DNA from: Gemmatimonas sp.
Lineage (GTDB): Bacteria > Gemmatimonadota > Gemmatimonadetes > Gemmatimonadales > Gemmatimonadaceae
Reading direction: 5' to 3'
Assembly (NCBI GenBank): GCA_965279375.1
Contig: OZ257156.1
Span: 2,912,001-2,976,000 of the forward strand
Length of the DNA stretch: 64,000 bases
Of this stretch, positions 35,546 through 45,419 are shown in pieces. The stretch's first letter is position 1, and the number at the start of each line of letters is the position of its first letter. The notes beneath the pieces were generated by a model that saw only the letters and a program-made list of their open reading frames with translations, was not told the origin of the DNA and did not search any database. A program made the position numbers and the translations under genes.

Positions 35546-35574
35546 TTGGCACTCTGACGCGTGGGCGGTAGCTT
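35546..35574 (+). promoter_or_regulatory. Putative sigma70 promoter of the CHAT operon
   Basis: TTGGCA-17nt-TAGCTT, ending 59 nt upstream of ATG 35634. Confidence 0.45.
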
Positions 35575-35633
35575 CGGCAGTTCTCCCGCCACACTGGTTT
35601 CGCTGGACTCGTCCTTCGATCCGACGTCTTCCC

Positions 35634-37847
35634 ATGCCGGCTGCTCCGCACGATCTAGACGCGTTCCGCACGCAATACCGCGCATTCATTAGCGACCTGA
35701 TGCGTGCGGTCGGGGGCGACGGCTCGTCGCCCCCGCAGTGGCTGCGCCTTCTCGAGGCGCAGCCATTTGAGTTTCCCAATGGGATTCCCGTCAATGCGGA
35801 CACCATCGCACTGCGAGGCCGTCTGCTTGCGCTGGTAGTGATGGCGGCTGATGACGATGCGTACGCGCGCGCTGCGTCGGCGGAGGTACGCCGCATGCTC
35901 TCCGTCGATGCAGATGAGGATGCGCAGTCGGAGGAAATCACCCGGGGCCCCACGCGCGGCTCTACGCGTGGGCCGACACGAGGCCCGAAGCGGAGTCGAC
36001 CGACGGCGATGGCAGAGCCACCGGACCGGCTCGACTTCGGCGCAGACGATGGCGGCGGCGGCGTGTCGAGCAAGCCTCCCACGGGTGCGTCTGCTGGCTC
36101 GGCGCCCGACGATGGACTGCTCAGCGCGGACCCGCTGGTGACGCGCAGCGTGGACTCCGACGAGGCGGCGCCTGCTGCAGCGGCGGCGCCAGCGACGCCG
36201 GCAGCACCACCCGTCGCTGCGCCGCCGCGCTACATGAATGCGGGGATCAAGGGGCAGGACCGCGACGATCCGCTGGTGGTGGGCGAGATGTACGTGCTGC
36301 AGTTCGGCGTCGATATGAAAAAGGGTGGCGAGACGGGCACCGACTTCGCCGCACGCATCCCTGACGTGAGTGTGCTGCTTCGCCCGGAGGAGGACTCGGG
36401 GGAACTCACCATTCAACTCGATGGCGACGCGTTCGACATTCCGACGCGAACGCAGGTGCTGCAAGTGCCGCGCACCGGGCCATCAGCTCGCAAGGTGAGC
36501 TTCGCGATCACGCCGACGCGTGAAGGGCGCGCGACACTGACGGCAACCGTGCACAAGGCGGGCAACTTTCTGTTCGAAATGGAGCTGTCGTACTCCGTTG
36601 GCGTGGTCGACGCGCGGCCGGCGACGACGGAGGTGCATGGACGCGCCCTCAGTGCGGCGAGCGCGATCATGCCGCGCGAGTTGGGACTTCGTATCAAGCC
36701 GGTGGAGAGCGGCTACGAATGCACCGTGTGGGGGGAGGTCAACAATCAGGTCACGTTGCCCATCACGACGGTCGAGCTCAAGGAGATGGTCGCGCGCGCG
36801 CGTGACGCGATGATGGATGTGGTGCTGCATGCGAACAGCGCGAACATCAAGATCTTCCAGCAGTCGGTGGACATCGACGATGCTTCGCGTGAGTACGCAT
36901 TGAAGACGCTCGCCTTCGCCGGTGCGGAGCTGTTTCAGCGCTTGTTCTACGGGCCTTCGGCTGGACCAGAGGTGAATCTCGTGGGCGACTGGCTGCGCGC
37001 ACGCGCCTCAAAGCCCGGACGCGTGCTCAAACTGCAGATCGTCGCGGAGCGATTCCCGATTCCGTGGGGACTGCTCTACATGGGCGAGACGGCGGACGGT
37101 GCCGCGCTCGACTGGCAGCACTTTCTTGGGATGCGGCACATCATCGAGCAGATCCCGCGTCAGGCGAACATGCTCGTCGATGACTTCGTGATTCCGAGCG
37201 ACGCCCCGTCGCTGGCGGTGAGCGTCACCGTGAATACCGGCATCGACGTGCAGATGAAGCGCGAGCTGGTCGCCCCTCAGGTGAAGTACTGGACGGATCG
37301 CGGTGCGTCACCCAAGAACGACGTGCAGCTGCAACAGCGGACCACCAAAGCCGACTTGATCAAGGCGTTGCGTTCGCAAAGCGCCGAGCAAGTGATGTAC
37401 CTGTACTGTCATGCCATCACGAGTGGCGTGAACGATCCGGGGGGCATCATGGCATCGTGTCTGGTGCTCTCCGGCGACGAACGCGTGACGCTGGGTGAAC
37501 TCAACCGCGAAGCGCCGATGCGCCAGGCGCTCCCGGGAAATCCGCTGGTGTTTCTCAATGCCTGCGAGTCTGCAGAGCTTACGCCGGAATTCTACGACGG
37601 CTTTGTGCCGTACTTCATGGCGAAGGGCGCGCGCGGCGTCGTCGGTACGGAGTGCAAGACACCGGCGCTGTTCGCCACGGCGTGGGCACAGGAGTTCTTC
37701 CCGCGCTTTCTCGCCGGTCAGCCGCTTGGCGAACTGTTTCGCGATTTGCGCAGTGAGTTTTGTCTCAAGCACGGCAATCCGCTCGGTCTTCTCTATGCCG
37801 TGTACTGTGATGGCGACACGCAGATTCAACCTGGCCTTCCTTCCTGA
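35634..37847 (+). CDS. CHAT (caspase-like) protease with disordered N-terminal region and Ig-like/TCAD7-like middle domain
   Basis: IPWGLLY, YLYCHA (His593), VFLNACES (Cys644), GARGVVGTEC, NPLGLLY. Confidence 0.85.
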   Translation: MPAAPHDLDAFRTQYRAFISDLMRAVGGDGSSPPQWLRLLEAQPFEFPNGIPVNADTIALRGRLLALVVMAADDDAYARAASAEVRRMLSVDADEDAQSEEITRGPTRGSTRGPTRGPKRSRPTAMAEPPDRLDFGADDGGGGVSSKPPTGASAGSAPDDGLLSADPLVTRSVDSDEAAPAAAAAPATPAAPPVAAPPRYMNAGIKGQDRDDPLVVGEMYVLQFGVDMKKGGETGTDFAARIPDVSVLLRPEEDSGELTIQLDGDAFDIPTRTQVLQVPRTGPSARKVSFAITPTREGRATLTATVHKAGNFLFEMELSYSVGVVDARPATTEVHGRALSAASAIMPRELGLRIKPVESGYECTVWGEVNNQVTLPITTVELKEMVARARDAMMDVVLHANSANIKIFQQSVDIDDASREYALKTLAFAGAELFQRLFYGPSAGPEVNLVGDWLRARASKPGRVLKLQIVAERFPIPWGLLYMGETADGAALDWQHFLGMRHIIEQIPRQANMLVDDFVIPSDAPSLAVSVTVNTGIDVQMKRELVAPQVKYWTDRGASPKNDVQLQQRTTKADLIKALRSQSAEQVMYLYCHAITSGVNDPGGIMASCLVLSGDERVTLGELNREAPMRQALPGNPLVFLNACESAELTPEFYDGFVPYFMAKGARGVVGTECKTPALFATAWAQEFFPRFLAGQPLGELFRDLRSEFCLKHGNPLGLLYAVYCDGDTQIQPGLPS
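35940..35987 (+). repeat. Four in-frame TRG[P/S] repeats
   Basis: ACCCGGGGCCCC ACGCGCGGCTCT ACGCGTGGGCCG ACACGAGGCCCG. Confidence 0.85.
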
Positions 37848-37857
37848 GGAATTCTGA

Positions 37858-39237
37858 ATGCCTGTACGCACTATTCCGGGCACGAATGTGCAGTACCATC
37901 TGATTAATTTCGACGCCGACGGCGTCGAGCGGGCGGAGAGCGATGGCACCATGCTGAGCGCCGAAGTTCGGGCACGCATTGCGTCGTCCACCGATCCAAT
38001 CAGCGACGTGTTCTTCTGCAGCCATGGGTGGCAGGGTGACATACCCGCCGCCATCGCGCAGTACGACAAATGGGTGGCCGCGATGGCTGCCTCGCCAGAC
38101 TTCGCGGTCGCGAAGGCCAAGCGCCCCGGCTTTTCACCGATCGTTGTCGGGGTGCACTGGCCCAGCCTGCCGTATGGCGATGAGAACCTGCCCGAAGCCG
38201 GCGTGCTCGGCGTGGATGATGGCACGCAGATCGAGGCACAGATCGATGCGTTCGCCGCGACGATTTCCAACACGAAAGCGGCACGTGATGCAATTCGCGT
38301 GATTCTGACTGCCGCGCAGCAGGATGACGGCGAGCGCGAGACGTTGCCCGAGCACGTGCGCAATGCGTACGAGCTGCTCGCGTTGGAGGCTGCACTGCCG
38401 GACGGTGGCAGCAATCCGGGTGGACCACCGGGAGAGGAGTTGGGCGCGTGGGATGCGGACGCGCTCTACGCTGATGCCCGAGAGATTGCGAAGACAGATG
38501 GCGCTTCGGATGGCGAAGGAGCGCCGGGTTTGCTGAGCGGAGGATTCTTCGGCAAGCTCAAGGGGCTGGTCGTCGCGCCGCTGCAGCAGATGTCGTTCTG
38601 GAAGATGAAGGATCGTGCGCGATCCATCGGTGAAGGCGGCGTGCACTCATTGCTCATCTCGCTGCAGGAAGCCTCCGAGCCCAGCACGCAGTTCCATCTC
38701 ATGGGGCACAGCTTTGGCTGCATCGTGATGTCGGCGACCGTCGCAGGCGCTGCGAACGGCGCGCCGCTCAAGCGGCCGGTCGATTCGCTTTTTCTGGTAC
38801 AGGGCGCGGTATCGCTGTGGTCGTACTCGCCCAACATTCCCGTCGAGCCCGGAAAGGTGGGCTACTTCAATCGCATTCTTGCGCAGAAGCTGGTGCGCGG
38901 GCCCATCGTGACGACGCAGTCGTCGCACGACACAGCCGTGGGCAAGCTCTATCCCGCAGCGGTACGCGTGAAGTCGCAGTTCCTGCTCGGCGACGAATAC
39001 CCGAAGTACGGCGGCATCGGGACGTTCGGCATTCAAGGTGTCGGCGACATCGGACAGAACCTCGAGATGTCTGACGCCACGCACCAGTATGCGTTCAAGC
39101 CGGGGCGTGTCTACAATCTCGAGTCGAGTGGGATCATCAAGGTGAGCAGCGGCCTGGCTTCCGGTGCGCACAGCGACATCGCCCATCCGGAAGTGGCGCA
39201 CGCCTTCTGGCAGGCTGTTCTCCACTCGGCCGCGTGA
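37858..39237 (+). CDS. Alpha/beta-hydrolase (lipase/esterase-like) with a large acidic insertion
   Basis: SHGW (oxyanion), VHWPS, HLMGHSFG (Ser285), SSHDTA (Asp358), GAHSDI (His438); no signal peptide; SD GAGGA. Confidence 0.85.
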   Translation: MPVRTIPGTNVQYHLINFDADGVERAESDGTMLSAEVRARIASSTDPISDVFFCSHGWQGDIPAAIAQYDKWVAAMAASPDFAVAKAKRPGFSPIVVGVHWPSLPYGDENLPEAGVLGVDDGTQIEAQIDAFAATISNTKAARDAIRVILTAAQQDDGERETLPEHVRNAYELLALEAALPDGGSNPGGPPGEELGAWDADALYADAREIAKTDGASDGEGAPGLLSGGFFGKLKGLVVAPLQQMSFWKMKDRARSIGEGGVHSLLISLQEASEPSTQFHLMGHSFGCIVMSATVAGAANGAPLKRPVDSLFLVQGAVSLWSYSPNIPVEPGKVGYFNRILAQKLVRGPIVTTQSSHDTAVGKLYPAAVRVKSQFLLGDEYPKYGGIGTFGIQGVGDIGQNLEMSDATHQYAFKPGRVYNLESSGIIKVSSGLASGAHSDIAHPEVAHAFWQAVLHSAA

Positions 39238-39238
39238 C

Positions 39239-42100
39239 ATGAGCCACACCGGTACGCTTCCGGCGCCGCTTCGCGTCACGGTGACGAACGCGAACCTCAA
39301 GTTCATTCGCCATCCGATGATGGTTGGGCACTATCGCTCGATGGTGCTTACCGGCACCGAGTTGGCGATGGACATGCTGCTCGGCGGTACGATGACCACG
39401 TCGCTGCGCATGGGGCTGTATCCGGATCAACCTGGTTCGCAGCAGATCTTCCTGAATACGCATGCCAATCACGACAATCCCATGCAACCGCCGCGACCAG
39501 ACGCGGTGATTGTCGTGGGATTGGGTGAGGAAGGAAAGCTGCGCGCGCCTGCGCTGGCCAGCACGGTTCGCCAAGGCGTAATGGCGTGGGCGCAGCGACT
39601 GCAGGGCAGTTCGGCCAAGAAGGTACCGTCGTTCGAACTGGCCGCATCGCTGATCGGCAGTAGCGGCTCCGGAAACAACGCTGGACAGGCGGCGCGATTG
39701 GTCGCTCAGGGCGTACGTGACGCCAACATACGCCTGCTCGAAGCGGGATGGCCCATCGTGCAGCACCTGCATCTCGTCGAGTTGTTTCTCGATCGTGCGA
39801 CGGAAGCGTGGCGCTCGCTGCAGATACTCGCCACGGCGTCGCCGGGCGAGTTCGTGATCTCGCCGTTCTTGCAGACGGGGCTGGGTGGCTTGCAGCGTCC
39901 ACTCAACCCGAGCTATCGCGGGTCGGAGTTCGACCTGATCACTGCGGTCACGCAGCAGGACAGTCACGGCGACTCGCTGATTGCATATACGGTCGATACG
40001 CGACGTGCTCGCACCGAAGTGCGCGCGCAGACAACGCAGATCAAACTGCTGCGCGAGCTCACCACGAGCGCCGCCGACAACGAGAGCACGGACAAGCAAA
40101 TCGGCCGCTCGCTCTTTCGCCTGCTCGTTCCGTTGGAGATGCAGCCGTTTCTCGGTGGCTCCGATGCGATGGTCATCGAATTGGACAGCGGCACGGCGGG
40201 AATTCCGTGGGAACTGCTCGACGCGTCTACCGGAACAGAACAGGGGCGCGCCGCGATGCCGTGGGCGCTGCGCACGAAATTGCTTCGCAAGCTTCGCACG
40301 GTGGACTTCCGCATGCAGGTGCAGGATTCCACAGCCGACGCGCACGTGTTGATCATCGGCGAGCCGCGGTGCGATGATCCCGCGTTTCCGCGACTTCCCG
40401 CCGCGCGCGAGGAAGCGCGCGACATCGCGCGACTGTTCAGCAGTCAGGGAAACTTGCCGTCGGCATCGGTCAAGGAGCTGATCTGCGGCCCCGGCCCGCG
40501 TGATGTCGGCCCCGATGCGCGCACGGTCATCAACGCACTGCTCGAGCGAGACTGGCGCATCATTCACATCGCTGGCCATGGTGAGCCGCCGGACGCCGCG
40601 ACGAGTGCGTCCGCTGCCGATGGCGTGCTACGTGCCGCATCGGATCCGCGCGGGGTCGTGCTTTCCAACGGCACCTACCTTGGCCCGCGTGAGATCGCGA
40701 CGATGTCCGTCGTGCCGGAGCTGGTGTTCGTGAATTGCTGCTACACCGCGGTCAGCAATGCGGAGGACATTCTCGACGCCAGCCCCGCCGACCGCCGCGA
40801 TCGCGCGCGCTTTGCCGCGGGCGTCGCAGAAGAGCTGATCCGCATTGGGGTGCGTTGTGTGATCGCCTCTGGCTGGGCCGTGGAAGACGAGCCCGCGATG
40901 GAGTTCGCGCGCACGTTTTACCGCGAGTTGCTACAGGGCAATCGATTCATCGATGCAGTCGCTGAAGCGCGGACGGCATCGTGGAGGAAGGGCGGCAACA
41001 CGTGGGCCGCATATCAGTGCTACGGCGATCCTGACTGGCGTTTTGTGCCGGCATCGGTGGAGGTGCAGCAGTCGTCCCGAAATCCGGAAGACAAGTACGC
41101 CGGTGTGGCATCGTGGCGCGTGCTGTTGCTGGCGCTCGAGGCGCTCGCTGTCGAGAGTCGCTACAAGGGATACGATCACGACAAGGGGCGCGCGAGTCTG
41201 CTGTTGCTGGAGCAACGCTTCGCCGCCGTGTGGGGAAACATCGGTGCGGTCGCGGAGGCGTTTGGGTTGGCCTGGTCGCAGCTTGGCGACCGCAACAAGG
41301 CGATCGAGTGGTACACACGTTCGGTTGCCACCAATGACAGCAGCGCTTCAATCAAGTCGGTTCAGGAGCTGGGTAACCTGCGCGCACGCGTCGCGTTGGA
41401 GAACGCCGATGCCGTCAAGGCGATGTGCGACTCCACCGGGGACACGACAGCGCTCACGACCGCCATCAACGCGGCCCGTGAGGAGATTCGGACCGCGCTG
41501 GCGATGCTGGAGCAGGTGGCGGGACTGCAGCCGACGATCGATCGAGAGAGTCGATGCGGCTCCGCGTGGAAGCGGTTGTCCATGTTGGAGGCGATGGCTG
41601 GTGATGCCAAGGCCGAGCAGGAGGCGATCGCGCGGATGAAGGAGCGCTATGACAACGCCGAAGAGTTGGCGCGTCGGACGCAGCATCCTGAGTTGTTCTA
41701 TCCGGCATTGAACCGCATGGCGGCGGAGCTGATCGTGGCGGGCCAAGCCGAGTCGTGGCGCGGGTTCGATCCCACTCATGTAGCAGAGATTCGCGAAAGT
41801 CTGCTGGCCAAGACGCGCGACGATCCTGATTTCTGGAGCGTGTCCGGTGTGACGCAGCTACGCATGTACGAAGCGATGGCGCATCGCGCGATGGCCGCCA
41901 ACCTCGATGCGATTCTGGATGAGTATGCCTCGCTCAACGAGCGGGTCAGCGCGACGTGGCTATGGGCGTCGGTGTACGATCAGGCGCGTTGGGTGGTGCC
42001 CAAGTACATGGAACGCGTGGATGAGGTCGAAGACGAAGCGGCGCGGCGCCTACTCGAACGGCTGGCGACGTACGCGGGAGTGCGCTCAGTCACAATTTGA
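39239..42100 (+). CDS. CHAT (caspase-like) protease with N-terminal alpha/beta domain and C-terminal TPR-like helical region
   Basis: IPWELL, LPAAREEA, IHIAGHG (His447), VFVNCC (Cys501), GWAVED, TWAAYQCYGDP; helical repeats ending in DFWS. Confidence 0.87.
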   Translation: MSHTGTLPAPLRVTVTNANLKFIRHPMMVGHYRSMVLTGTELAMDMLLGGTMTTSLRMGLYPDQPGSQQIFLNTHANHDNPMQPPRPDAVIVVGLGEEGKLRAPALASTVRQGVMAWAQRLQGSSAKKVPSFELAASLIGSSGSGNNAGQAARLVAQGVRDANIRLLEAGWPIVQHLHLVELFLDRATEAWRSLQILATASPGEFVISPFLQTGLGGLQRPLNPSYRGSEFDLITAVTQQDSHGDSLIAYTVDTRRARTEVRAQTTQIKLLRELTTSAADNESTDKQIGRSLFRLLVPLEMQPFLGGSDAMVIELDSGTAGIPWELLDASTGTEQGRAAMPWALRTKLLRKLRTVDFRMQVQDSTADAHVLIIGEPRCDDPAFPRLPAAREEARDIARLFSSQGNLPSASVKELICGPGPRDVGPDARTVINALLERDWRIIHIAGHGEPPDAATSASAADGVLRAASDPRGVVLSNGTYLGPREIATMSVVPELVFVNCCYTAVSNAEDILDASPADRRDRARFAAGVAEELIRIGVRCVIASGWAVEDEPAMEFARTFYRELLQGNRFIDAVAEARTASWRKGGNTWAAYQCYGDPDWRFVPASVEVQQSSRNPEDKYAGVASWRVLLLALEALAVESRYKGYDHDKGRASLLLLEQRFAAVWGNIGAVAEAFGLAWSQLGDRNKAIEWYTRSVATNDSSASIKSVQELGNLRARVALENADAVKAMCDSTGDTTALTTAINAAREEIRTALAMLEQVAGLQPTIDRESRCGSAWKRLSMLEAMAGDAKAEQEAIARMKERYDNAEELARRTQHPELFYPALNRMAAELIVAGQAESWRGFDPTHVAEIRESLLAKTRDDPDFWSVSGVTQLRMYEAMAHRAMAANLDAILDEYASLNERVSATWLWASVYDQARWVVPKYMERVDEVEDEAARRLLERLATYAGVRSVTI

Positions 42101-42245: not shown

Positions 42246-45200
42246 ATGCGACTCGATACGCGCACGATCCTGTTCGTGATCTCGCTGGTGAGTTTCACGA
42301 ATGCGATGGCGATGTTCATTGGCTGGCGCACGTATCTGCGCCAGCGACAAATGGCGTGGTGGCTGGCGTCGAGCTTCAGTTTGACGCTGGGCATCTGCTT
42401 GCTGACGCTGCGCGGCTTGGTACCCGACGTTGTGCCGGTGGTTTTCGGCAATTTTGCCGTTCTGATCAGCATGGGGACGCTGCTGATCGGCTGCGAGCTG
42501 TCCGTAGATGCACGGCCGTCGTGGCGCGGGGCCGGTTCGCTGCTCGGCGTGCTCGCTGCGGTGCATCTCTACTTCTTCTTTGGTTTCGATTCCTTCCTGG
42601 CGCGCACGGTGGTGATGTCTATTGCCTCGGCCGCCTTTCCCCTCGCGTCGGCGCGCGTGCTCTTCCGTGCGCAACGGCAGCCGTCTACGTCCACGCGATT
42701 CATTGCGGCGGGGCTGTTGTTCTTGATTGGCGGGGCGCAGGCACTTCGCGGCATCCTGGCGCTGCGCGGCGCGACGCCGACGGACCTGGTGGGTGACAAC
42801 GTCGCGGTTACGGTCAATCTGACGTTGGCACTCATGCTGTGGCTGCTGTTGTCGTTCGTGTCGATGGTGATGACGGGTGAGCGACTGCAGGAAGAGACGC
42901 GCGTGGCGCGGGCCGCGCTCGATGCGTCCACGCAGGCGGGTCTGCAGGCATTGCGCCGCAGCGAGGAGCGCTTCTCGCTCGCCGTGGAAGGATCGAATGC
43001 GGGCATCTGGGATTGGGACGTGGCGTCGAACACGTTCTTCCTGTCGGCGCTCGGCAAGTCGCTGCTTGGCTACGCCGACGACGAAGCCGAAGGGAGCTAC
43101 GAACGGTGGTTTCAGTTGCTGCACCCAGATGATTCCCCGCGTGCGGTGCAGACGATTCGTCAGTACCTGCGCAGTGGGCAATCGGAGCTGGTGCTGGAGC
43201 ATCGGTTGCGTCACCGTGACGGAACCTATCGTTGGATGCTCGGTCGCGGTGCGGCGCGACGCGATGCGGCGCTGCGTGTGTATCGCATCGCCGGCTCGAT
43301 CGAGGACATTACGGAACGTCGAACGACGGAGGATGCGCAGGAATTTCTTGCGCGCCACGCACATCTCGGGCTCGGCGAAGACTTCTTCGACTCCCTCTGT
43401 CGCTATCTCCTGCAGGCGCTCAGCGCCGATGCTGTCTTCTTCGATCGTCTCTCGGCAGATGGATCGAGCGCGGTGGTCGAAGCGTCGTGTACGATTGGAG
43501 TCATCGGCGTGCCTGCGGTGCGCGAGTTGGAGGGGAGTGCAGTTGGCGAGTGCGTGAAGGAGGGCAACTGGTCGATGCTCCGCGGCGTTCGGGAGCGCTT
43601 TCCCACCGATGCGAGGCTGCGCGCCGTTGGCGCCGAGGCGTGTGTGGGAACGACATTGCGCATGACCAATGGTCAGCCGATCGGTGTGATCACGGTCGTG
43701 ACTCGAACTCCGCTCGCGGATTCCCGGACCGCGGAGTTGCTGCTGTCGCTCTTTGCCGTGCCGGCGTCCGGTGAACTCATTCGCAAGCAGGCGGACGAGG
43801 CATTGCGGCGTCGCGAGGAGTATTCGCGGCACCTGCTGACGAGCCTCCCTGCCGGCGTGGTCGTGCATTCGCCAGACACAGCGGTGCTCGACTGTAACGC
43901 GATGGCGAGTGCGATGATGGGGCTGACGCTCGACCAGATGCGTGGCCGCACGGCCGTCGATCCATCGTGGAGTTTTGTGCGCGAGGATCGCACGACGATG
44001 ACGCTGGATGAGTATCCGGTTCGGCGTGTCGCTGCGACCGGAGCGCCCGTGAGTGGGTTGGTGGTGGGCATGCAGGTGCCTGGACGCGGTGATGTCACGT
44101 GGGCGGTGTGCAACGCCTATCCGATCGACGACGATGACGGTGCACTCTCGCAGATCGTGGTGACGTTCGTGGACGTCACGGAGCGCATCCGATCGGAGGA
44201 GGCACGCGCGCAGCTGGAGTCGCAGTTGCGACAGTCGCAGAAGATGGAGGCGGTTGGGCAGCTGGCCGGTGGAATCGCGCACGATTTCAATAACCTGCTC
44301 ACCGTGATCACCGGCATTGCGGATGTCGCCGCGCGCAGTTTGTCGCCAGAGGATCCGTTTCGTCGCGATCTCACCGACATCCAACGCGCAGGGCAGCGCG
44401 CCGCGGTGCTCACTCGTCAGCTACTCGCGTTCGGCCGCAAGCAGACCATTGCACCGGAGATTTTGAACCTTGGCGTGTTGATCGACGACTTGCAGCCACT
44501 GCTGACGCGCGTCATTCGCGAGAATATCCGCCTTGAGCTGCGGGCCTGCCGCGGCCCGTGTGAGGTGCTCGCCGATCCCGGACAGATCGAGCAGGTGCTG
44601 CTCAACCTTGCGTTGAACGCGCGGGATGCGATGCCGCACGGCGGCACGCTCACCTTCGAGCTGAGCGAGACTACGCTCGACCCGGCGTTCGTGCGCTCGC
44701 ATCCGGGCGTGCGTCCGGGGCCGCATGTGCGAATGAATGTGCGCGACACCGGCGTCGGGATGGACGAGTCCACGCGTGCGCGCGTTTTCGAACCGTTCTA
44801 TACCACCAAGGCGCCGGGGCAGGGGACTGGGCTTGGCCTGGCGACGGTGTATGGGATCGTCTCGCAGTCGCGTGGAGCCATCGAGGTGGTCAGCGCGCCG
44901 GGACAAGGCACGACGTTCTCCGTCTACCTGCCGTTGGTGCGCGGTGCGTCACACGCGGGCGAAGGATCCGCGCTCCGGGTACGCACGCCGAGGGATACGC
45001 CGTCCGTACCGATGTACGAGGTATCCGAGGAAGCATTCTCGGGGACGGGGAGCATTCTCGTGGTGGAAGACGAGGGAGCGATCCGTCGCCTCGCGCAGCG
45101 CATTCTCCAGAGTGCGGGGTACACGGTTCTGACGGCGTGCGACGGTGTGGATGCCTTGCGCGTACTCGAAGAGCGTGGCTCGGCGGTGGACCTGTTGCTG

Positions 45201-45419
45201 ACCGACGTGATCATGCCCAACATGGGCGGACCGGAGCTCGCCAAACGGCTGTCAGAGTTGCACCCGTCCACGAAGGTGCTGTACGCTTCGGGTTACGCGG
45301 GCGACGCGGAGTTGCGCCTCAACGCGATTGGCGAGTCCAGCAATTTTCTGGGCAAGCCGTATCAAGTAGTGGAGCTGACACGGAAAGTGCGAGAGATCAT
45401 GGCCACAGGCAAAGCGTGA
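42246..45419 (+). CDS. Membrane hybrid sensor histidine kinase (TM sensor-PAS-GAF-PAS-HisKA-HATPase-REC)
   Basis: About 7 TM helices; GIWDWD/HPDD PAS; AHDFNNLL, NARDAM, DTGVG, FEPFYTTK, GTGLGL; REC LLTDVIMP..KP. Confidence 0.93.
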   Translation: MRLDTRTILFVISLVSFTNAMAMFIGWRTYLRQRQMAWWLASSFSLTLGICLLTLRGLVPDVVPVVFGNFAVLISMGTLLIGCELSVDARPSWRGAGSLLGVLAAVHLYFFFGFDSFLARTVVMSIASAAFPLASARVLFRAQRQPSTSTRFIAAGLLFLIGGAQALRGILALRGATPTDLVGDNVAVTVNLTLALMLWLLLSFVSMVMTGERLQEETRVARAALDASTQAGLQALRRSEERFSLAVEGSNAGIWDWDVASNTFFLSALGKSLLGYADDEAEGSYERWFQLLHPDDSPRAVQTIRQYLRSGQSELVLEHRLRHRDGTYRWMLGRGAARRDAALRVYRIAGSIEDITERRTTEDAQEFLARHAHLGLGEDFFDSLCRYLLQALSADAVFFDRLSADGSSAVVEASCTIGVIGVPAVRELEGSAVGECVKEGNWSMLRGVRERFPTDARLRAVGAEACVGTTLRMTNGQPIGVITVVTRTPLADSRTAELLLSLFAVPASGELIRKQADEALRRREEYSRHLLTSLPAGVVVHSPDTAVLDCNAMASAMMGLTLDQMRGRTAVDPSWSFVREDRTTMTLDEYPVRRVAATGAPVSGLVVGMQVPGRGDVTWAVCNAYPIDDDDGALSQIVVTFVDVTERIRSEEARAQLESQLRQSQKMEAVGQLAGGIAHDFNNLLTVITGIADVAARSLSPEDPFRRDLTDIQRAGQRAAVLTRQLLAFGRKQTIAPEILNLGVLIDDLQPLLTRVIRENIRLELRACRGPCEVLADPGQIEQVLLNLALNARDAMPHGGTLTFELSETTLDPAFVRSHPGVRPGPHVRMNVRDTGVGMDESTRARVFEPFYTTKAPGQGTGLGLATVYGIVSQSRGAIEVVSAPGQGTTFSVYLPLVRGASHAGEGSALRVRTPRDTPSVPMYEVSEEAFSGTGSILVVEDEGAIRRLAQRILQSAGYTVLTACDGVDALRVLEERGSAVDLLLTDVIMPNMGGPELAKRLSELHPSTKVLYASGYAGDAELRLNAIGESSNFLGKPYQVVELTRKVREIMATGKA

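Follow-up and report, generated by a model that had tools for sequence, protein, structure and literature searches.

The stretch of Gemmatimonas sp. DNA considered here (assembly GCA_965279375.1, contig OZ257156.1, positions 2,912,001 to 2,976,000; 64,000 nucleotides, referred to below as the window) carries an operon of three genes: gene 1 encodes a caspase-like protease of the CHAT family (CHAT-1), gene 2 an alpha/beta-hydrolase, and gene 3 a second CHAT protease (CHAT-2). The three open reading frames (ORFs) are co-oriented on the forward strand and are separated by gaps of only 10 base pairs (genes 1 and 2) and 1 base pair (genes 2 and 3), a layout that had been described from the letters alone (the sequence-only reading) and that the ORF coordinates bear out. 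The features of the operon are listed below in window coordinates, with arrows marking predicted cuts and pLDDT standing for the predicted local distance difference test of the structure models.

35546–35574, forward strand: probable promoter, TTGGCA-17 nucleotides-TAGCTT; hexamers and spacing are kept in orthologues, and the function is putative
35634–37847, forward strand: gene 1, CHAT-1, 737 residues, predicted executioner (Pfam CHAT, E 1.3e-11)
35940–35984, forward strand: gene-1 linker, four Thr-Arg-Gly repeats (R104, R108, R112, R116) at which gene 3 might cut (Arg↓Gly)
36114–36125, forward strand: gene-1 linker, Gly-Leu-Leu-Ser (L163), possible site of self-processing
36228–36599, forward strand: Ig-like domain of gene 1 (residues ~199–322), all-beta in the model
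36669–37844, forward strand: CHAT-1 protease core (H593 at 37410–37412, C644 at 37563–37565, A678 at 37665–37667)
37858–39237, forward strand: gene 2, alpha/beta-hydrolase, 459 residues (S285, D358, H438), predicted zymogen and effector
38200–38211, forward strand: hydrolase loop 1, GVL↓G (L117), candidate cut in segment 107–121 (pLDDT <50)
38527–38538, forward strand: hydrolase loop 2, GLL↓S (L226), candidate cut in segment 217–228 (pLDDT <50)
38980–38991, forward strand: hydrolase loop 3, FLL↓G (L377), candidate cut in segment 367–381 (pLDDT <50), between D358 and H438
39239–42100, forward strand: gene 3, CHAT-2, 953 residues from the ATG at 39239, predicted initiator (Pfam CHAT, E 3.3e-28)
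39263–39868, forward strand: Peptidase_M17_N-like domain of gene 3, candidate ligand sensor (a lead only, from sub-cut-off M17_N matches)
40100–41029, forward strand: CHAT-2 protease domain (H447 at 40577–40579, C501 at 40739–40741, D550 at 40886–40888)
41096–42073, forward strand: TPR-like helical tail of gene 3, candidate sensor (TPR-S, E 5.3e-05)

Gene 2 has just a weak Abhydrolase_8 match in Pfam. Its structure model (pLDDT 83) is that of an alpha/beta-hydrolase (best Z 13.6, 228 residues aligned, root-mean-square deviation 4.6), with many esterases and lipases nearly tied, and a Foldseek search of the PDB gave no match at E ≤0.001. The wider structural aligner returned a generic hydrolase fold only, from which no substrate can be assigned. 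The sequence-only reading had called this protein a pro-lipase effector; the fold and the zymogen-like character stand, but a lipase activity is only putative, as many esterases match equally well. The Ser-Asp-His triad lies where that reading had placed it (S285/D358/H438) and is conserved in all 87 hydrolases that could be labelled by partner.

Relatives of gene 2 are numerous, with 2,683 among representatives at 50% identity. A scan of GTDB species genomes gave 259 stretches encoding such a relative, the best 80 of which were analysed. A homologue of gene 1 (Ig-like domain plus CHAT) partners the hydrolase in 41 of these 80 loci, and the two are fused into one polypeptide in 26 of the 41 (25 whole, one cut by a contig end). 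In 31 others, the partner is instead a Peptidase_C25-like protein of 470–570 residues with an intact His-Cys dyad; a CHAT gene is found near 30 of the 31 and, in the examples scanned, is mostly of the CHAT-nSTAND1-WD40/FGE or CHAT-HEAT type. CHAT-1 and the C25 partner were never found together (0/80), and the remaining eight loci are divided between four with another CHAT nearby and four short contigs. A CHAT-1 or C25-like protease adjoins the hydrolase, or is fused with it, in 72 of the 80. The loci of this sample span at least eight phyla in a pattern at odds with the host tree, and 28 matches to gene 2 were found on plasmids, three of them near full length. Among 400 further genomes of the phylum, 15 encode more distant relatives, 13 of these behind an S8 subtilase and two near C25/CHAT genes.

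The only three [LV]L[GS] motifs of gene 2 coincide with its only three segments of pLDDT <50. The short motif recurs at three places in the hydrolase in 56 close homologues, in which L377 is invariant, and it changes with the class of the partner protease. The Leu motif is present at loops 1, 2 and 3 in 39, 37 and 37 of 42 CHAT-1-partnered hydrolases (background 5.6% of 755 other 20-residue windows), as against 0, 0 and 2 of 33 C25-partnered ones. These carry a Phe/Tyr motif, typically S-F-G or S-F-A, in 28, 30 and 14 of the 33 (background 23%; the pattern overlooks V-x-F variants at loop 3), a motif found in 1, 0 and 0 of the 42 CHAT-1-partnered proteins. With a subtilase partner, an Ala motif is seen at the three loops in 6, 10 and 3 of 12. 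L023, the frame of which is broken, was excluded from these counts. In a tree of the hydrolases, the C25-partnered members form a clade nested in the CHAT-1 type (Shimodaira–Hasegawa-like approximate likelihood ratio test, 100), with the subtilase-partnered members as the outgroup. In a forward test on fusions from another library (the best 150 listed of 2,683 relatives), scored by eye, the loops were of Leu type in all nine readable CHAT-1 fusions, two more being unreadable, and of Phe type at one loop or more in all 11 C25 fusions, one of which carries Leu at loop 1; at least one of the fusions duplicates a previously sampled locus. Phe motifs also lie in most of the inter-domain linkers shown for eight polyproteins combining C25, trypsin, NucA, PLD and hydrolase domains. 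Given that the motif marks loops and linkers and tracks protease class, it is most simply read as a cut site, and the pattern of sequences suggests that the three loop motifs of the hydrolase are probably cut sites for the partner protease.

The alternative versions of the module differ in composition. The C25-partnered loci (L031, L034, L035, L043, L046-L050, L055, L057, L059, L062, L064-L069, L071-L080 and, on a plasmid, L134) come from cyanobacteria, acidobacteria, planctomycetes and others, and combine a hydrolase with Phe-type loops, a C25-like peptidase with an intact His-Cys dyad and a CHAT-nSTAND1-WD40/FGE/HEAT or CHAT-SIR2-like protein, an arrangement that looks like an NLR-type cascade. 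Polyproteins with a C25-like peptidase, trypsin, NucA, PLD and hydrolase (P0252, P0265, P0268, P0269, P0279, P0328) have Phe-Gly/Ala linkers and are candidate self-processing effectors. Two-gene operons of an S8 subtilase and a hydrolase are found at L119-L124 and L126-L132 and at the plasmid locus L135; seven have Ala-type loop motifs, five (L128-L132) have another pattern, and L124 is apparently broken.

Gene 1 consists of a small N-terminal region of no known family, a low-complexity linker, an Ig-like beta-sandwich and the CHAT protease (Pfam CHAT, 44.9 bits against a cut-off of 24; DUF7363 reached only E 0.13). An Atlas search with residues 1–100 gave no usable match. The model of residues 195–737 has a pLDDT of 86.9, and the nearest solved folds are Csx29/TPR-CHAT (E 1.4e-10, TMq 0.44) and separase. 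The Ig-like domain accompanies the CHAT-1 core across related loci. The His-Cys dyad H593/C644, correctly sited by the sequence-only reading, is conserved in 43/43 homologous domains, and Pro-Ala is present at positions 677–678 in 41/44 homologues. The motif [LV]L[GSD] occurs in 37 of 40 CHAT-1 linkers, fused and free alike. Arg-Gly is found 23 times, against 5.4 expected, in the nine linkers from loci with gene 3 (4.3-fold), and 44 times, against 24.6 expected, in the 31 from loci without it (1.8-fold); these linker counts omit L002, L012, L015 and L033, which are cut or out of frame. Complex prediction for the CHAT-1 core and the hydrolase gave a score of 0.00 against a mark of 0.32 and counts neither way.

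Several CHAT-1 loci have further partners. CHAT-1 is fused to SEFIR/TIR-NACHT-type domains in L054 (6087-10004), adjoins a TIR-FGE gene in L006 (6697-7899) and lies downstream of a second Ig-like-CHAT gene in L010 (5569-7968); these partners are candidates for other sensor inputs to the same core. In seven Burkholderiaceae loci (L022, L030, L032, L037, L052, L053, L058), a conserved gene of 250–320 amino acids, without a Pfam match in the one scanned (L022), precedes the fused hydrolase-CHAT-1 gene, and in six of them an opposite-strand gene of 270–310 amino acids, also without a match, lies behind the fusion. A same-genus copy of CHAT-1 (L144, G465:C263) is interrupted by a TAA stop, is no more than 42% identical and is possibly decaying.

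Gene 3 comprises an M17_N-like domain, a CHAT protease (Pfam, 99.4 bits against a cut-off of 24) and a TPR-like helical tail, the first and last with sub-cut-off matches only (M17_N, E 0.054; TPR-S, E 5.3e-05). The tail profile also matches designed TPR proteins (E 5.2e-05). The dyad H447/C501 is at the positions given by the sequence-only reading and is invariant in a ten-row alignment of gene 3. The M17_N domain was matched in five of the ten aligned members, at best with E 0.0026 and under the cut-off, and the Atlas cluster for this N-terminal domain is labelled M17_N at 70% with a score of 0.90; a PDB sequence search with it found nothing significant. M17_N is taken here to have a macro-like fold, with a Gly-Asp-hydrophobic adenine motif and a Gly-rich loop presumed to be the macro hallmark. 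Gly-Asp is present in this domain in 70 of 96 matched long relatives, and gene 3 has A-N there. The domain may be a macro fold of the nucleotide-sensor type, but this is a lead only.

The origin of gene 3 is indicated by longer proteins. A search for proteins longer than gene 3 with its residues 1–610 gave 1,242 matches; the 120 listed are 1,678–2,035 amino acids long, are 53–61% identical to this part of gene 3, and contain DUF7379 and CHAT, in most cases together with an LCAT-like lipase and with TPR-S. As the start of gene 3 coincides with the start of the M17_N-like domain in these proteins, gene 3 corresponds to the C-terminal, sensor-protease half of this family without its lipases. The ten short forms of gene 3 are set apart from the rest by a branch of just 0.033 (FastTree 97), which is compatible with either a single origin or two origins of the truncated form. 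Asp occupies the position of residue 550 in 114 of the 120 listed long relatives (the pattern failed to match the other six), and Arg-Gly is conserved in 53–80% of 40 rows, both at several loop positions in the lipase half and immediately ahead of the M17_N-like domain. These DUF7379-LCAT-CHAT-TPR-S proteins (L104:6041-12154, P0123-P0242), with their conserved Arg-Gly motifs in the lipase-half loops, suggest by sequence self-processing at Arg↓Gly. Another DUF7379 plus CHAT protein of 1,218 amino acids is encoded in the same genome (L149, G000:C1:907334-910990, reverse strand), with a 516-residue gene of no clear family 51 base pairs after it; the whole genome has seven CHAT domains. A recent duplication of one CHAT was rejected for genes 1 and 3, the profiles of which align weakly (probability 70.8, 22% over 154 columns).

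Gene 3 is much less constant than the hydrolase and its protease. A second CHAT lies near 17 of the 41 CHAT-1 loci, and a homologue of gene 3 lies behind the module in eight: four have the same three-gene order (L001-L004) and four are Burkholderiaceae loci with a fused hydrolase-CHAT. The three-gene order is also found at the same-genus loci L106 and L145. The trio therefore does co-occur elsewhere, as the sequence-only reading supposed, but does not hold as a conserved unit; with gene 3 at 8/41 loci, the conserved unit is the hydrolase plus protease, and gene 3 is optional. Action of gene 3 from elsewhere in the genome was rejected, its profile having no match in 10/10 pair-only genomes checked, albeit with no positive control. 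Within the phylum, gene 3 was detected in two of 401 genomes, and CHAT-1 in eight of 87 same-genus genomes, the source genome included, with a stop in one copy. All ten truncated forms of gene 3 lie directly behind the hydrolase/CHAT-1 module.

The locus is a differing version of a protease-armed hydrolase module that has already been published in principle, and as a kind it is already described. The pairing of a caspase with an alpha/beta-hydrolase is stated for VMAP ternary systems (Kaur 2020, PMC7159879), and alpha/beta-hydrolases of this sort are listed as predicted membrane-lipid effectors (PMC8195603). In Lysobacter capsici, LcHydrolase (296 residues) is a death effector activated by LcCaspase at Arg↓Gly sites; two cuts drop the middle piece, and the N- and C-terminal pieces are jointly toxic (Evans 2025, 10.1101/2025.11.14.688446). 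The Gemmatimonas operon shares with this module an alpha/beta-hydrolase with an intact triad and an adjacent or fused caspase-superfamily protease with an intact dyad, a cytoplasmic hydrolase and short loop motifs with Gly after the cut, which here is a predicted one. Judged by eye, the two LcHydrolase sites occupy similar places, one following a Tyr-Gly-Asp stretch and the other preceding the helices that run to the nucleophile strand. However, gene 2 is longer (459 versus 296 amino acids, with an insert of 109 versus 44 residues) and has three Leu↓Gly/Ser loops rather than two Arg↓Gly sites, the third without a counterpart in the preprint. Its only Arg-Gly (R347) is located in the conserved core. 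Its partner protease belongs to the PF12770 CHAT family, bears an Ig-like domain and is often fused, and the operon has a second protease. As Arg↓Gly sites were not found in the loops, gene 2 is not of the LcHydrolase family in the narrow sense, the sequences having been compared by eye only. Unlike VMAP ternary systems, the operon, its two neighbours and the 17 further window proteins scanned have no VMAP, vWA or MoxR match.

Other CHAT systems offer partial likenesses. Two proteases in series have a precedent in the SAVED-CHAT to PCaspase pathway of a type III-B CRISPR system of Haliangium ochraceum (10.1101/2023.06.23.546230). Both loci have two caspase-like proteases with a sensor-fused CHAT acting first, an order only proposed for the Gemmatimonas operon, and the CHAT part of gene 3 alone matches the PADLOC SAVED_CHAT profile (E 1.9e-06). 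In contrast, the operon has no SAVED or Peptidase_C14 match, no cas genes were seen in the window, and the protease in second place is itself a CHAT, predicted to have a single dedicated substrate instead of a broad activity. In Runella, a CHAT protease cuts a gasdermin in an exposed loop with Leu at P1 and Gly at P1' (10.1101/2021.06.07.447441); Leu↓Gly in an exposed loop is likewise predicted here, but the protein concerned is an enzyme for which three cuts are predicted, not a pore protein cut once, and none of the three genes encodes a gasdermin. Craspase cuts Csx30 after Leu407 (PMC9729208; PDB 8eex). Csx29 and separase are the nearest folds to gene 1, at only 9–13% identity, whereas no gRAMP/Cas7-11, Csx30 or sigma factor was detected among the genes scanned around the operon. 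The C-terminal half of the uncharacterized DUF7379 (PF24096)-LCAT (PF02450)-CHAT-TPR-S proteins (~1,700–2,000 amino acids) is 53–61% identical to gene 3, but gene 3 has no counterpart of their N-terminal lipase half of ~900 residues, and an unrelated hydrolase and CHAT-1 are encoded instead, as separate genes; a Pfam scan found no DUF7379 or PF02450 domain in any of the three operon genes.

PADLOC 2.0 and NCBIfam 20 gave no whole-protein match (genes 1 and 2 unmatched, gene 3 with only partial sub-cut-off CHAT/caspase matches); the sequence-only reading had likewise not recognized the layout as a named system. Four elements, namely the trio, the DUF7379/DUF7363 proteins, the three-loop motif and the C25 or subtilase partners of the hydrolase, are undescribed in the full-text literature searched, which included few subscription papers, and in passages of two preprints (10.64898/2025.12.03.692087, 10.64898/2026.10.19.760177).

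The flanks of the operon are those given by the sequence-only reading: a Pfam scan identified a tricorn protease gene on one side and a PAS/GAF hybrid histidine kinase gene on the other. Other genes of the window are housekeeping-like (ribonucleotide reductase, tricorn, TldD), and the guanine plus cytosine content of the operon resembles that of the remainder of the window. The upstream tricorn gene is present in 39 of 40 same-genus genomes. Fourteen empty-site regions were taken, from which L115 was dropped (wrong side of the tricorn gene); the 13 informative regions behind the tricorn gene comprise two with the trio and the kinase and 11 with other genes. The kinase (42246-45419, forward strand) lies directly behind the operon; it is present at both same-genus sites with the trio (L105, L106) and at 0/11 sites without it, and may belong to the same accessory block. 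The sigma70-like promoter proposed earlier scores 8/12 against the consensus, under the threshold of the promoter scanner, which found no forward-strand promoter over threshold and terminators no better than chance. A similar hexamer pair with 17-base spacing is found upstream of the gene-1 orthologue in all four loci examined (L001, L003, L004, L106), so the promoter is backed by conservation, not by its consensus score. None of the three proteins has a hydrophobic N-terminus, the best 19-residue windows being internal (≤1.54); the absence of signal peptides thus agrees with hydropathy, although no signal-peptide predictor was used.

The best overall explanation of this locus, with a probability of about 60%, is a cytoplasmic protease-gated effector module, most likely serving abortive defence or cell suicide. 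Its core step is likely: CHAT-1, specific for Leu↓Gly/Ser, would process the gene-2 hydrolase, cutting its three exposed loops after L117, L226 and L377 to give pieces of 12.5, 11.2, 16.1 and 8.6 kDa. The helical insert 118–226 would be the probable inhibitory piece, by analogy with LcHydrolase, whose two cuts remove a middle piece, and the third cut would fall between the catalytic residues D358 and H438. A further cut, after L163, is probably made by CHAT-1 on itself and would, in fusions, release the hydrolase. The idea of a protease-gated zymogen, put forward in the sequence-only reading, fits the loop-motif pattern, cleavage itself being a prediction. What the analysis establishes is the anatomy and conservation of the genes, their co-occurrence and fusion, the places of the motifs and the covariation of motif with partner.

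An upstream step, from gene 3 to gene 1, is possible, although its chances fall somewhat short of even. A trigger would be sensed through the TPR tail or the M17_N/macro-like domain of CHAT-2, which, specific for Arg↓Gly, would cut the Thr-Arg-Gly repeats of the CHAT-1 linker and free CHAT-1 from its N-terminal region. In separase, D2151 binds the P1 Arg, and the Craspase equivalent is Lys670, 43 residues after the catalytic Cys. On the basis of a W-x-V-x-D motif, D550 of CHAT-2 is presumed here to match separase D2151; at this presumed position CHAT-2 has Asp550 and CHAT-1 has Ala678. The S1 residues of clan CD are covered in PMC4626109. The Arg-Gly enrichment in the linkers, the Arg-Gly loops of the long relatives and Asp550 together suggest an Arg↓Gly initiator role for CHAT-2, whose fused substrate would have been lost and replaced by CHAT-1 as the target, and the roles assigned by the sequence-only reading (TPR-CHAT as initiator, the other CHAT as executioner) are consistent with this motif evidence. 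The reverse order, with CHAT-1 cutting CHAT-2, was not favoured, as the LL↓G of gene 3 at L48 is not kept in orthologues. As for the output, the balance tips slightly towards an armed hydrolase that is toxic or defensive; it would attack an ester or amide substrate, with membrane lipid as the leading guess. The case for toxicity and a defence role is one of analogy, of a patchy distribution and of relatives that keep company with STAND, TIR and NucA, and does not draw on the neighbours of the locus. The most ambitious form of the proposal, a three-tier initiator-executioner-effector cascade with Arg↓Gly and Leu↓Gly codes, set within a widespread, undescribed, protease-swapping hydrolase family that rewrites three loops, is more tentative still than the upstream step.

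Several observations weigh against this explanation. Of the 41 CHAT-1 loci, 33 (some on short contigs) lack gene 3, and 13 of the 26 with full flanks have no second CHAT, so that CHAT-1 apparently works without a neighbouring initiator. Arg-Gly is also enriched in linkers from loci without gene 3, and the nine loci with it form only two kin groups. The Leu motif is missing from the CHAT-1 linker of two same-genus orthologues (L106, L145), and the five-member subtilase subclade L128-L132 has no uniform loop motif. The motif patterns were defined only after the alignment had been seen, and, with one switch from CHAT-1 to C25 and a subtilase outgroup, the data provide two independent contrasts rather than 87. 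Gene 2 was unmatched in 50,697 phage records, and the Rhizobium subtilase version adjoins thiamine and ABC genes. PADLOC applied to 117 neighbour proteins of 20 CHAT-1 loci revealed no island pattern, in a comparison with no background set; the few matches (CHAT, TIR, cyclase, helicase, ABC-type) were mostly to generic domains. The defence-island enrichment that the sequence-only reading had named as a check was not seen in this sample, and the defence role it proposed is retained only in the conditional form given above.

The strongest rival, though unlikely, is that the system is a one-step module with a passenger, gene 3 being a truncated remnant or parallel branch of the DUF7379-LCAT-CHAT system, with other targets or only a scaffolding part, and the Thr-Arg-Gly repeats low-complexity noise. 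The scarcity of gene 3 at CHAT-1 loci, the second-CHAT slot left empty at half of those with full flanks and the 1.8-fold Arg-Gly enrichment without gene 3 are all in line with this, as is the occurrence of full-length gene-3 relatives without an adjacent hydrolase or CHAT-1 (L104). Against this rival, the truncated gene 3 retains its dyad and overall conservation in two phyla, lies 1 base pair from gene 2 and, in all ten cases, stands directly behind the module, and each of the nine gene-3-associated linkers examined has at least one Arg-Gly. It is improbable that cleavage serves instead to mature a non-lethal esterase for stress, development or lipid turnover, with no part in defence. The housekeeping-like window genes, the few defence matches among neighbours, the thiamine genes beside a subtilase version and the fold matches to general esterases would suit such a function, whereas the patchiness of CHAT-1 within the genus (8/87, one copy with a stop), the block missing from 11 of 13 informative sites and the distribution across eight phyla or more, out of step with the host tree, would not; nor would the sister clade with CHAT-nSTAND1-WD40/FGE/HEAT sensors and NucA, trypsin and PLD fusions, or the TIR-NACHT fusion of L054. 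Least probable is that the motifs serve as lid, membrane-contact or docking motifs of a hydrolase that is activated by binding or constitutively active: hydrophobic-Gly motifs are common in lipase lids, the cut sites are predicted only and clade-wide motif changes could be co-inherited with the partner, but three separate loops shift jointly with protease class, unstructured linkers that are not part of the hydrolase carry the motif too, and Leu-Gly and Arg-Gly are shown cut sites of related proteases.

Relative to the published module, what appears to be new, as judged from sequence, is that cut sites may be readable directly, that the motifs change with the class of the partner protease and that a second protease is a possible trigger. 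If this is true, the locus would yield exact predictions, cheap to test, on a question left by the 2025 preprint, namely the arming of protease-gated hydrolases and the targets of these enzymes. Bacteria would have another two-protease cascade started by a CHAT, this one not tied to CRISPR, and the class of switch would widen to take in cytoplasmic gingipain-like (C25) peptidases as well as subtilases. The specificity of several uncharacterized proteases, across CHAT, C25 and subtilase, would be legible from their substrates, with P1 preferences (Leu, Phe, Ala and Arg) predicted for four unstudied protease groups, and such proteases would be usable as orthogonal parts for synthetic protein circuits.

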